Below are positions 16,893 through 18,501 of a stretch of 64,000 nucleotides of DNA, piece after piece. The notes under the pieces are model-generated. The model had not been told where the DNA came from. It saw only the letters and a program-made list of their open reading frames with translations, and searched no databases. Both the position numbers and the translations under genes were made by a program. Origin of the DNA: a bacterium (lineage in GTDB: Bacteria; Actinomycetota; Acidimicrobiia; Spongiisociales; UBA5794); assembly GCA_024228555.1 (NCBI GenBank), contig JAAETI010000243.1, positions 24,528 through 88,527 on the forward strand, read 5' to 3'. Position 1 is the first letter of the stretch. Each line of letters begins with the position of its first letter.

Positions 16893-17042
16893 CGTCTGTC
16901 CGACTATACGCCGCACCTGTGACATAAACCACACTGATGTAGTTATTCACAGGAAGACAAAGGAAATCAGCCCGTTTTCGGACTGTTTGGATCTGACCGC
17001 GAAATCTTCCAATAGAGCGCGAAAACTAAGAAGCGCTCAGGC

Positions 17043-17074
17043 TTGACTGCGGATCGCCGTCGGACGTACTTTAT
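17043..17074 (+). promoter_or_regulatory. candidate sigma-A type promoter (TTGACT-N18-TACTTT)
   Basis: The only AT-rich patch in the island. -35 TTGACT at 17043-17048 and -10 TACTTT at 17067-17072. Confidence 0.4.
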
Positions 17075-17214
17075 CCGTCCTTGAGGGCTCCAACCATGGA
17101 GGAGCGGAGATCGGAAGGATCGGACCCGGGAAACCGGACCGGACCGGCACCGAGATCCACGACCCTGGCGCTTGCGTCCACGGTCACCCGGAACGGATAC
17201 GTTCCGCTCGACAC

Positions 17215-17690
17215 GGCTTCGGCAGTGTTGAGAACCTGTCATCGGGACTTCGGTCACAATGACAAACCCGCCTGCGGACTTCGGTCGCAAAGGCACGTTG
17301 GAGAGGTAGCTCCTCGACGACACCGTCCGAAGGGCTTCGGCCCCGAAGACAAGCTGCGGAACTTCGGTTCGGCAGACGGTCCTGGCTTCGGCCAAGGCCA
17401 CGCCAAGACTTCGGTTGCGGCGAACTGGACAGGCTTCGGCTTGACCAGGTTCTCCGAGTGAGGCTTGCTGCCCACCAGGTGAGAGCTTCGGCTCAAACCG
17501 GGTAGTAGTTGCCATACAAGAAGAACAGATGAGACTTCGGTCTCATCGCCTACCGGTGCGACCGGTGATCACGAGGGTTTCCTCGGTCAGGAGCTTCGGC
17601 TCCGGATCGAGAGCCGCCGGGCTTCGGCTCGGATCGGCAAGCCAGCGAGATCGACGGTCACGCAGGTGCCCGAAACGAGAGCTTCGGCTC
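17215..17690 (+). repeat. degenerate tandem array of 13 cUUCGg mini-hairpins (period about 23-31 nt)
   Basis: CTTCGG hexamers start at 17217, 17248, 17279, 17335, 17362, 17386, 17409, 17434, 17486, 17535, 17594, 17622 and 17682. Each is flanked by 2-5 complementary bases, giving a C(UUCG)G tetraloop only on the plus strand. Confidence 0.6.
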
Positions 17691-17837
17691 CGTGACGGAA
17701 CGGCACGGCTGGCTTGCGCAGGGACCACGGTTCTGAACCAAGCAAGACGAGTCGGTAGATGTCCTCACGGCCATCTGCAGCAAGCGACTGGAAGGGTCCG
17801 ACCCCTCGGGGAAGGTGCCCGACCGGAAGCAGAGAAT

Positions 17838-17885
17838 CCCCGAGAGGGTGGCGGTTTCGACCAAAGCTCCCTCGGGGTTTTCTTT
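17838..17885 (+). terminator. compound intrinsic terminator (outer CCCCGAGAGGG/CCCTCGGGG stem, inner GGU-UUCG-ACC hairpin, then TTTTCTTT)
   Basis: Stem halves lie at 17838-17848 and 17869-17877, with the T-tract at 17878-17885. Confidence 0.6.
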
Positions 17886-17889
17886 GTCT

Positions 17890-18501
17890 TCAGCACCCGT
17901 CGGTGAGTTCGATGAGCGTCACTGTGCTCGCTGCATCAGGTCCGTCCAACAGACCGCCGATCGTGGAATCGTCGATCTGGAACGACCACACATCGAGCTC
18001 GACGTCCCCTGCGATCGCTGCGGACCCGAGATATGCGGCTTCGAGGTCGGCCACGGTGCTACCGATCCCAATGCCTTCTGAGGTAGACAGGCCTAGACCG
18101 CGGGGATCGACGCCCCCTACGTTTTGGGTGTAGTCGTAGCCGTAGGTGTAGGTGAAGAATCGACCACCTAGGTCTTCGTTGCCGTCTTTGACGAAGATGG
18201 TCAGCAAGCTGCCCCATCCAATGGCCCTCATCTGATCCCCGGGACATGACCCGTAGATGTTTGGTTCTGACGCTATCCAATCGGAATCGAGATCGGGCTC
18301 TCCATAGAGCGCGGAGATATCGGCAACCACTGTCTCGGGTGGCGACCCCAGGAGGACGTCGCCTAGTCCATCTTCTCCAAGCTGAAGACTCACGAGTGGT
18401 GCTGGCATCGATGTCGTCGCAGCAGGCTCACTTGTGGCGCAACCGGCGAGCAGCACGGTCGCAAGTCCGGCTGTGATGATCGAGCGTAGATGTGAGTTCA
18501 T
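17890..18501 (-). CDS. secreted lipoprotein, unknown function
   Basis: N-terminal MNSHLRSIITAGLATVLLAGCATSEPAA signal peptide with lipobox. The start is the internal ATG at 18501. Confidence 0.6.
   Translation of the reverse strand: MNSHLRSIITAGLATVLLAGCATSEPAATTSMPAPLVSLQLGEDGLGDVLLGSPPETVVADISALYGEPDLDSDWIASEPNIYGSCPGDQMRAIGWGSLLTIFVKDGNEDLGGRFFTYTYGYDYTQNVGGVDPRGLGLSTSEGIGIGSTVADLEAAYLGSAAIAGDVELDVWSFQIDDSTIGGLLDGPDAASTVTLIELTDGC

Follow-up and report, generated by a model that had tools for sequence, protein, structure and literature searches.

A predicted gene for a long structured RNA with an expanding hairpin string beside the nuclease/adnAB operon of Acidimicrobiia

The stretch of DNA analysed here, called the window throughout, is 64 kb of an Acidimicrobiia genome (contig JAAETI010000243.1, assembly GCA_024228555.1), and the element in question is the gap at 16893-17889 between two of its minus-strand genes. 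On the left the gap begins at the start of a PD-(D/E)XK nuclease gene (ATG 16892-16890, minus strand, Pfam PDDEXK_1), and on the right it ends at the stop of an unannotated lipoprotein-like gene, also on the minus strand, whose stop codon ends at 17890. The initial annotation had proposed that this island has a promoter and a terminator of its own and yields a structured plus-strand RNA of about 800 nt, and the comparative evidence presented below argues for a gene of about 810 nt. As judged from its homologs, the island is a stand-alone gene for a non-coding and highly structured plus-strand RNA, spanning about 17078-17885. The predicted parts of this gene, which we call RNA1, are as follows.

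16998..17024, plus strand: upstream promoter element with two direct CGCGAAA boxes (16998-17004 and 17018-17024, 20 bp from start to start)
17043..17072, plus strand: predicted sigma-A-type core promoter with -35 TTGACT (17043-17048), an 18-nt spacer and -10 TACTTT (17067-17072)
17078..17885, plus strand: predicted transcript of the 'long' RNA1, about 810 nt, drawn from a 21-sequence alignment, covariation and the z score of the minimum free energy (MFE)
17079..17083, plus strand: 5' strand CCUUG of a long-range helix, pairing with CGAGG at 17572-17576 and closing the 5' domain that carries the hairpin array
17087..17105, plus strand: palindromic-loop hairpin, with the invariant 9-nt loop AACCAUGGA (17092-17100), a CCAUGG palindrome flanked by purines
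17107..17205, plus strand: conserved 5' domain, with helices 17107-17114/17150-17157 and 17117-17129/17134-17145 and a GNRA-type hairpin at 17190-17205
17209..17550, plus strand: variable expansion segment, a row of hairpins almost all of which have cUUCGg caps, with 10 of the 13 CTTCGG hexamers
17261..17291, plus strand: window-specific 31-nt tandem duplication adding one hairpin (copies 17245-17264 and 17276-17295, 85% identical, repeat family D2)
17572..17831, plus strand: conserved 3' domain, with the junction CGAGGGUUUCCUCGG, GGCAAGCC and GGCAC, a hairpin at 17755-17778 with the conserved loop UCCUCACGGC, and a helix set at 17789-17825
17832..17885, plus strand: compound intrinsic terminator, with a UUCG hairpin inside an outer stem of 16 pairs, and the tail UUUUCUUU

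The hexamer CTTCGG stands on the plus strand at 17217, 17248, 17279, 17335, 17362, 17386 and 17409, and then at 17434, 17486, 17535, 17594, 17622 and 17682, the spacings being 31, 31, 56, 27, 24, 23, 25, 52, 49, 59, 28 and 60 nt. Our recount agreed exactly with the 13 copies within 17217-17687 and the spacings that had been listed before. The rest of the window holds 27 plus-strand copies in about 63.5 kb, which corresponds to about 0.2 expected copies per 471 nt (Poisson P about 1e-19), and the minus strand of the island carries 2 copies as against 13 on the plus strand. All 13 copies cap hairpins; complementary flanks were seen at every copy, and the stems, often 4-9 bp with an internal mismatch, are frequently longer than had been thought. 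The three hexamers outside the expansion segment (17594, 17622 and 17682) sit in the 3' domain, and a fourteenth UUCG loop, closed by a U-A pair, lies inside the terminator at 17856-17859.

Homologous loci were collected by searching the nuclease protein against one genome per species of the GTDB, which gave 70 loci. In the metagenome-assembled genomes of Acidimicrobiia, the DNA just upstream of the nuclease gene was enriched in CCGAAG on the nuclease strand, the equivalent of plus-strand CTTCGG in the window, with up to 13 copies, and nothing comparable was found in Corynebacterium, Demequina and other Actinomycetota among the 70 loci. By blastn the island aligned from end to end with locus L001 (80% identity) and with L023; a dozen other loci gave two aligned blocks, a 5' block at about 17018-17160 and a 3' block at about 17525-17885, with a variable middle. 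Eleven further members came from a metagenome scan, and the long-RNA family has 25 members, all of them divergent from the nuclease gene and 110-250 bp away from it wherever the flank suffices. The promoter and the terminator keep their positions across the 25 homologs. A lineage-specific insertion without any conservation of the hairpin pattern, which the initial annotation had named as one of the outcomes that would speak against an RNA gene, is not what the relatives show: conserved homologs exist, and their hairpin stems are kept by compensatory changes.

The secondary structure was examined on a MAFFT alignment of 21 sequences (A4), whose consensus fold was computed by RNAalifold. This fold contains 177 base pairs in 33 helices, and 95.3% of the cells are paired, as compared to 88.8% in shuffled alignments. 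Compensatory changes, in which at least one sequence has both sides changed with pairing kept, were found in 86 of the 177 pairs, whereas the shuffles had 47.5±3.7 pairs with double changes and none of the 500 shuffles reached 86. When the 3' partners were instead moved by 1-3 columns, 21-33 pairs had double changes and 33-53% of the cells were paired, and this slide control is, on the comparative level, decisive support for a base-paired RNA. The mini-hairpins covary as well: in helices 7-17 the orthologous array hairpins keep their stems through double substitutions, with 3-8 compensatory pairs in each helix. The MFE was lower than that of dinucleotide shuffles on either strand (z = -7.7 for the plus strand and -6.0 for the minus strand). 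As for the strand, the helix cells of A4 contain 420 G-U against 55 A-C combinations, an asymmetry that fits only a plus-strand transcript, and the promoter and the T-tract are correctly oriented for it; together with the excess of plus-strand hexamers, these data sustain the strand-specific signal seen in the initial annotation.

A protein-coding gene was considered as a rival, either as a 121-aa coding sequence (CDS) at 17096-17461 on the plus strand or as a 182-aa minus-strand open reading frame (ORF) at 16967-17515. The former was called by a gene caller in GCA_024223445.1 (contig JAAEOG010001147.1, equal to L192 1519-1884), its start codon is the AUG within the conserved CCAUGG loop, and this GC-rich DNA leaves several frames open over 60-180 aa. 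However, ORFs that start from the same conserved AUG in 21 homologs vary between 15 and 241 aa and share a frame for about 8 codons before they part. Relative to the window, indel runs number 151, 92 and 54 for lengths with remainders 1, 2 and 0 on division by three, so no bias toward multiples of three was found in the homologs. No Pfam family matched the 121-aa product or any of six ORFs of the island, the spacings of CTTCGG are not multiples of 3, and conservation follows base pairing. The earlier view that the island has no convincing ORF and is unlikely to encode a repeat protein thus agrees with the homologs, in which no reading frame is conserved; the 121-aa CDS is, on this comparison, spurious, and the protein-coding reading, refuted at the level of comparative sequence, retains next to no probability.

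None of the known RNA families accounts for the island either. Over the whole window no Rfam 15 model reached its gathering threshold, and at E<=10 the region 16800-18000 gave three chance matches (two eukaryotic miRNA models and one riboswitch) with 14-18 bits against thresholds of 40-78. The initial annotation had seen no fit to RNase P, tmRNA, SRP, 6S or a riboswitch, and the Rfam search now run found none of them at the gathering threshold. Likewise nothing was found in 18 related loci (150 kb, gathering threshold), and ARAGORN found no tRNA or tmRNA in 16000-24500. CRISPR arrays have identical repeats of at least 23 nt with unique spacers of similar length; the repeat families of the island are only 12-20 nt long, 70-100% identical and spaced by 23-60 nt, and a CRISPR array was rejected. 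The antitoxin RNAs of type III toxin-antitoxin systems (ToxI-like) are built from tandem units of about 34-36 nt that hardly differ from one another, and the gene of an endoribonuclease toxin lies downstream on the same strand. The units of the island are 70-85% alike and irregularly spaced, and the downstream gene is convergent, so this class was set aside too. Dispersed palindromes of the REP/BIME or MITE type do not fit, the motif being clustered only here in 64 kb and the homologs occupying one syntenic locus per contig. A Chi-like or other DNA-level role of CTTCGG was also rejected, because the hexamer is near expectation outside the island.

The predicted promoter is conserved in its layout. 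The TTGACT and TACTTT hexamers are present where the initial annotation placed them, with their position conserved in the 25 homologs, and the -10 consensus is TAC(G/A/C)TT. The second CGCGAAA box ends 18 nt upstream of the -35 hexamer, and both boxes are invariant in 15 homologs; within the window, double CGCGAAA boxes occur at only two sites, here and at 23082-23108. The TTGAC-N18-TAC(N)TT arrangement stands at the same position in 103 distinct units, from which the consensus CGCGAAA-N8-ta-N3-CGCGAAAaC...gcTTGACg-N17/18-TAC.TT was derived. A generic consensus scan called no promoter, because TACTTT agrees with TATAAT at only 3 of 6 positions. The transcript probably starts at about 17077-17080, which is 5-8 nt past the -10 hexamer. 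Known stable RNAs (RNase P, tmRNA, SRP) driven by CGCGAAA boxes were considered and rejected, because the scanned loci that have the module contain no known RNA. A phage or mobile origin was rejected as well, because the promoter-module pattern was matched only once, by a low-GC chance match, in 2.9 million viral contigs.

At the other end, the core of the terminator (CCCCGAGAGGG...CCCTCGGGGTTTT, 17838-17885) includes a computed terminator-like site at 17863-17881 on the plus strand that was called as intrinsic (Rho-independent), and its extended 16-pair stem is 98% paired in the 21 sequences. The terminator module is also found in paralogous RNA genes and other units. A second copy, which had been reported already, is indeed present at 23388-23435, but it is better understood as the end of a paralogous RNA gene with the same promoter module. 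In the island the terminator directly adjoins the stop codon (17890) of the lipoprotein gene, which is convergent, and it may work on both strands. A 14-nt inverted repeat (16953-16966 / 17878-17891, GAAGACAAAGGAAA / TTTTCTTTGTCTTC, 13 of 14 positions complementary) brackets the gene including its promoter; L001 and other homologs have not kept it, and we estimate about 0.1 such chance repeats per kb squared of comparisons. The single-sequence fold used this repeat as a closing helix, which does not belong to the RNA, because its 5' arm sits upstream of the promoter and it is unconserved in the homologs.

Within the RNA, the conserved part and the conspicuous part are different. The hairpins that attracted the initial annotation are real, but the array is a variable expansion segment hung on a conserved core rather than the conserved part. 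The core of the 5' domain, as delimited by the alignment, spans 17087-17205 and includes the CCAUGG loop, which is invariant in 21 of 21 sequences and is the sole CCATGG in the RNA, the invariant GGGAAACC with its GAAA tetraloop, and helices 3-6 with compensatory changes. The 5' end of the RNA probably pairs with 17572-17576, where the 3' domain begins. The 3' domain has invariant blocks, among which GGCAAGCC and GGCAC are conserved and single-stranded, three UUCG hairpins (17592-17601, 17618-17631 and 17675-17693), and helices 20-31, which are 89-100% paired and mostly show compensatory changes.

The array, on the other hand, is full of lineage-specific insertions and deletions in A4. The core is retained in L030, which has no array at all, and in L011 and L032, where no more than 2-3 exact CTTCGG are left. 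Inside the RNA adjoining the nuclease in L014 (3373-3569), a 59-nt tandem unit with two UUCG hairpins is repeated 3.3 times at 97% identity, which on the sequence is direct evidence of recent array expansion, and in L002 (3518-3577) a 22-nt unit is repeated 2.7 times at 92% identity. The extra 31-nt hairpin of the window fills A4 columns 216-246 in the window only and is absent from 20 of 20 homologs. Tandem Repeats Finder (TRF), applied to the window's island, found only a 5-nt ACCGG microrepeat (3.8 copies) and no tandem array of hairpin-sized units. The array grows and shrinks, differently in every lineage, as hairpin units of 22-59 nt are duplicated in tandem, and the idea of a decayed tandem repeat of a 25-30-nt hairpin unit was essentially right, with live duplications now added to it. 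UUCG is the commonest loop at the orthologous caps (154 of 287), the others being UCCG, UACG, CUCG, CACG, GACG and occasionally GNRA. Such drift among stable tetraloops points to selection for stable and compact hairpins and argues against sequence-specific recognition of UUCG. Tandem second units with the -35 variant TTGTC were also observed in L163 (about 4050-4560, with a near-exact internal duplication), L122, L178 and L136 (201 onward); their hairpin arrays have GNRA caps (GGGAAACC, GGGAGACC) and linkers in which GGAGGCGGAAGG is repeated, and are the same 'hairpin string' design with another tetraloop family.

The second double box of the window belongs to the paralogous gene.

23082..23435, plus strand: paralogous 'short' RNA gene (RNA2), with the double box at 23082 and 23102, -35 TTGACC at 23127 and -10 TATCTT at 23151

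The spacing of its promoter (TTGACC-N18-TATCTT) is identical to that of the island, and the module common to both genes reads CGCGAAA-N13-CGCGAAA-N18-TTGAC-N18-TAnnTT. The predicted RNA2 is about 270 nt long with the same terminator, and its body is rich in cGCAAg, cGAAAg and cUUCGg hairpins. Its family has 48 members, in which 31 of 64 consensus pairs show compensatory changes, and Rfam searched with an E-value threshold gave nothing for it. In most genomes RNA2 ends 100-150 nt upstream of a same-strand bPH_2+SHOCT gene (23578-24210 in the window), which it might thus regulate in cis.

The pattern CGCGAAA-N13/14-CGCGAAA-N17-19-TTGAC was found in nearly all Acidimicrobiia loci, often twice, and in at least 120 metagenome contigs, about 30 of 120 being chance matches in unrelated coding DNA. 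The RNA bodies behind it fall into classes: 'short' with 48 units (including RNA2), 'long' with 25 (including the island), 'tiny' with 22, and other long variants. The 'tiny' RNAs (90-145 nt, not in Rfam) carry a conserved GGGGGCCCGCUUUCCCGG between the same promoter and terminator modules, and in distant Acidimicrobiia they hold the nuclease-adjacent slot (L085 at about 2985-3152, L103, L110, L124 and L133). A dispersed multi-copy family was our first reading of these units, which was rejected because tblastn of the flanking proteins put nearly all real units in one syntenic locus, with the order nuclease/adnAB (leftward), RNA1 (long, tiny or variant), RNA2 (short) and the bPH_2+SHOCT gene. 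The island is thus, by this synteny, one of two or three paralogous RNA genes sharing promoter and terminator modules at a single Acidimicrobiia locus, where RNA1 turns over quickly while the modules persist. A covariance model of the 5' domain (R1) matches only the 'long' family, with 88-115 bits and once in the window, and an nhmmer profile of the long RNA matched other classes through the UUCG hairpins alone; homology of the long RNA to the short, tiny and other long variants is therefore not shown beyond promoter and terminator. Between RNA1 and RNA2 (17890-23001) the window contains a lipoprotein-like ORF, a PAP2/kinase-like gene, a 287-aa ORF, PAP2 and LPG_synthase_TM. This block is present in the window genome and close relatives, and RNA1 and RNA2 are adjacent in more distant relatives; cell-envelope lipid genes seem to have entered the RNA locus by insertion.

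On its left side the gene shares its intergenic region with the promoter of the nuclease operon.

16890..16944, minus strand: divergent nuclease/adnAB promoter region, not part of the RNA

This region consists of an imperfect palindrome AACTACA-N4-TGTGGTT (16927-16944), the element TGTCACAG-N8-TATAGT (16903-16924) and the ATG at 16890-16892, and these elements are conserved in all close homologs (L001-L032, at about 3940-4000). What we first took for a DnaA box at TGTAGTTATCCACAG was rejected, because the alignment shows it to be half of the palindrome, which is a putative operator. The promoter consensus of mycobacterial PafBC is tTGTCRgtg-N8-TAnnnT. The element conserved across the clade, TGTC(A/G)GTG-N8-TATAGT about 10 nt before the ATG, which is the reading of L003, L023 and L030, matches this PafBC (RecA-NDp) promoter, and PafBC-type control may extend to Acidimicrobiia. 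The RecA-NDp motif acts in mycobacterial RecA-independent DNA-damage promoters (PMC6789036). In two metagenome contigs (L130 9270-12943; L167 840 onward), the double box and -35 hexamer stand upstream of a class II ribonucleotide reductase gene; the L130 ORF has the Pfam domains Ribonuc_red_2_N, Ribonuc_red_lgC and TSCPD (class II, B12-dependent; NrdJ), and the long nrdJ leader holds NrdR-box-like repeats. The double box shared by nrdJ suggests a regulon common with the RNA genes. The locus thus sits in a neighbourhood of DNA repair and replication, which permits a guess on when the RNAs are made and says nothing on what they do.

Several known systems can be compared with RNA1. Sets of paralogous small RNAs, such as the CiaR-dependent csRNAs of streptococci, Qrr1-5 and the NsiR1 tandem array of Nostoc, are base-pairing regulators of 60-200 nt. 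They likewise comprise several RNA genes with the same direct-repeat element, core promoter and similar terminator, often in tandem, but RNA1 has 810 nt and the bodies of the paralogs here are unrelated. CsrB and RsmZ resemble it in having many similar short hairpins in a row, a copy number that varies between species, a stand-alone gene and an intrinsic terminator; RNA1, unlike them, has UUCG/YNMG caps instead of a repeated GGA loop motif, and a large conserved non-repetitive core. With OLE, GOLLD, ROOL and raiA it shares a length of 0.6-0.8 kb, non-coding nature, its own promoter and terminator, dozens of covarying helices, conserved loops and the lack of a known partner. However, no Rfam model matches it and its distribution is much narrower; it lies at a chromosomal DNA-repair locus of Acidimicrobiia and not in phages or near tRNA islands, and much of its length is a simple string of short hairpins as against an intricate multi-pseudoknot fold. 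The Xist A-repeat consists of AUCG-tetraloop-capped tandem hairpins in a long non-coding RNA (PMC8887474). It offers an analogy only, that of a tetraloop-capped hairpin array arising from tandem repetition inside a long non-coding RNA; Xist is eukaryotic, with well-conserved repeats, U-rich linkers and demonstrated protein recruitment, whereas RNA1 has fast-decaying repeats and drifting caps. 6S RNA and Ms1 are stand-alone structured RNA genes of Actinobacteria that are hard to detect by sequence search, Ms1 being syntenic with a HAD-IB hydrolase and an oxidoreductase (PMC9130861). RNA1 is also a stand-alone structured RNA gene in Actinomycetota, but membership in 6S/Ms1 was rejected: the fold is multi-hairpin and multi-domain without a rod with a central bubble, the neighbours are the nuclease, lipoprotein and PAP2 genes, and the Rfam 6S models are unmatched. 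All in all the island is, in comparative terms, an uncatalogued family of long structured RNA with narrow distribution and an unusual, still-active growth, its known kind being the orphan large bacterial non-coding RNAs.

Based on these results, we favour, with moderate confidence, the reading that the island is a structured RNA gene with a hairpin expansion segment, whose product would have a structural or scaffolding role in trans and whose expression would be controlled by a factor binding CGCGAAA. The promoter behind the two boxes would start transcription near 17078 and the terminator would stop it at 17832-17885. The long-range helix would close the 5' domain, made of the core and the variable string of hairpins, and the conserved 3' domain would follow. 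Such an RNA would act in trans through its conserved core and loops, a structural or scaffold role being our best guess, and the hairpin string would mainly provide nuclease- and Rho-resistant bulk, or a valency easily tuned by evolution. The putative factor on the CGCGAAA repeats would set its expression jointly with that of RNA2.

Some of our own data weigh against this reading. The locus yields neither a partner protein nor a target, and both ends of the transcript are predictions from the sequence. The array is the least conserved part of the RNA, although it drew attention to the island. The shuffle control overstates significance because the sequences are related by descent, and the slide control is the safer one. 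The long-range helix (helix 1; 17079-17083/17572-17576) is conserved, with 96% pairing, and unproven by covariation because its changes are one-sided only (C-G to U-G), and a local hairpin CGAGG-GUUU-CCUCG competes with it. R1 carriers are limited to genomes with a nuclease at least about 79% identical, and in more distant relatives the slot is taken by RNAs unrelated to it; RNA1 must therefore be young or evolve fast, and it may be dispensable. The possible self-pairing of the palindromic loop, taken up below, is beyond the reach of covariation because the CCAUGG loop never varies.

Among the other explanations, the initial annotation had suggested a protein-sequestering or scaffold RNA, of which the scaffold is retained as our best guess and the sequestering version through UUCG is weakened by the drift of the caps. 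In that version the RNA would be a multivalent sponge or platform in which each cUUCGg hairpin binds one copy of an RNA-binding protein, as in CsrB/RsmZ with CsrA or the Xist A-repeat. It would explain well the 13-14 similar hairpins spaced by 23-31 nt or about twice that, the fast shifts in copy number by duplication, as expected for a tunable valency, and the UUCG arrays that recur in otherwise unrelated RNAs of the same slot (13 in L014, 12 in L020, 15 in L107 and 12 in L176), as well as the nhmmer matches across classes, which involve the UUCG hairpins only. On the other hand, orthologous caps that change to UCCG, UACG, CUCG, CACG, GACG and sometimes GNRA speak for stability and not for read-out, the stems and linkers have no common motif beyond the cap, the core is kept in L030 without an array and in L011 and L032 with 2-3 exact CTTCGG, and no candidate binding protein is linked to the locus; we consider the sponge unlikely, though worth keeping in view. 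Quite improbable is a cis-acting island, whose transcription or tethered RNA would control the divergent nuclease/adnAB promoter or insulate it from the convergent gene. The constant divergent arrangement at 110-250 bp in every genome with enough flank, the PafBC-like motif and conserved palindrome of the nuclease promoter, and the terminator abutting the stop codon of the convergent gene are all in its favour, but such a role needs neither about 30 helices under compensatory change nor invariant loops. Moreover, a paralog with the same promoter stands 5 kb off in the window beside unrelated genes, a protein gene precedes the nuclease instead in L016-L022, and the nuclease homologs of Corynebacterium, Demequina and others have no such RNA.

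The same distribution bears on an RNA cofactor, guide or decoy of the Cas4-like nuclease or AdnAB, comparable to the omega-RNAs (HEARO) beside IscB/TnpB genes. The RNA is large and structured with conserved loops, and its strict neighbours are UvrD-type helicase-nucleases and a PD-(D/E)XK nuclease whose C-terminal part carries a Cys cluster. Yet the nuclease family is widespread without the RNA, and sister lineages swap in unrelated tiny or long RNAs with the nuclease still 60-75% identical; the RNA is divergent and not co-transcribed, no guide-like variable segment is evident and the Rfam HEARO model is unmatched, which leaves this partnership with a very small probability. Only slightly more credible, and still highly improbable, is transcribed junk, that is, a hairpin minisatellite without a function of its own that grew between the promoter and the terminator left by the duplication of a small-RNA gene. 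The narrow distribution and fast turnover, the ongoing tandem duplications and the dispensability of the array in L030 are what junk would predict, but it would not predict a core with long invariant blocks and compensatory changes where the flanking proteins are only 79-92% identical, and the orthologous array hairpins of helices 7-17 keep pairing via double substitutions, which is unexpected without selection.

The scaffold reading could be taken one step further. The CCAUGG palindrome in a 9-nt loop suggests self-pairing of the RNA, which the invariant loop could mediate. The dimerisation loop of HIV-1 is laid out as two purines, a 6-nt palindrome and one purine, which is the same layout. 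In OLE, GOLLD and ROOL, palindromic loops make symmetric kissing contacts in homo-oligomers (PMC12286853); the loop of RNA1 shares this palindromic form. The full combination, in which RNA1 would be a self-associating scaffold held by a CCAUGG kissing contact, forming dimers or larger assemblies of RNA only, the hairpin string would set particle size or valency, and RNA1, RNA2 and nrdJ would form a regulon of a factor binding CGCGAAA, tied to replication or DNA-damage stress and neighbouring a nuclease/adnAB operon apparently under PafBC control, is decidedly unlikely, if a shade less so than a cis-acting island. If it were true, Actinomycetota would have their first RNA of this sort, and one could follow how a small-RNA gene gives rise to a long RNA as its hairpins are duplicated.

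Few non-coding RNAs of bacteria exceed 500 nt and have a well-supported structure, and OLE, GOLLD, ROOL, HEARO and raiA each opened a line of work. The family proposed here comes from the class Acidimicrobiia, which is poorly studied and mostly uncultured; it is absent from Rfam 15 and is partly annotated as a hypothetical protein, so that it may enter the catalogue and a spurious CDS may be removed. The CGCGAAA-N13-CGCGAAA element defines a candidate regulon of two or three RNA genes and nrdJ. The locus also shows with unusual clarity how a long RNA comes to be assembled, with a shared promoter and terminator, a kept core and an expansion segment that is still duplicating its hairpins.

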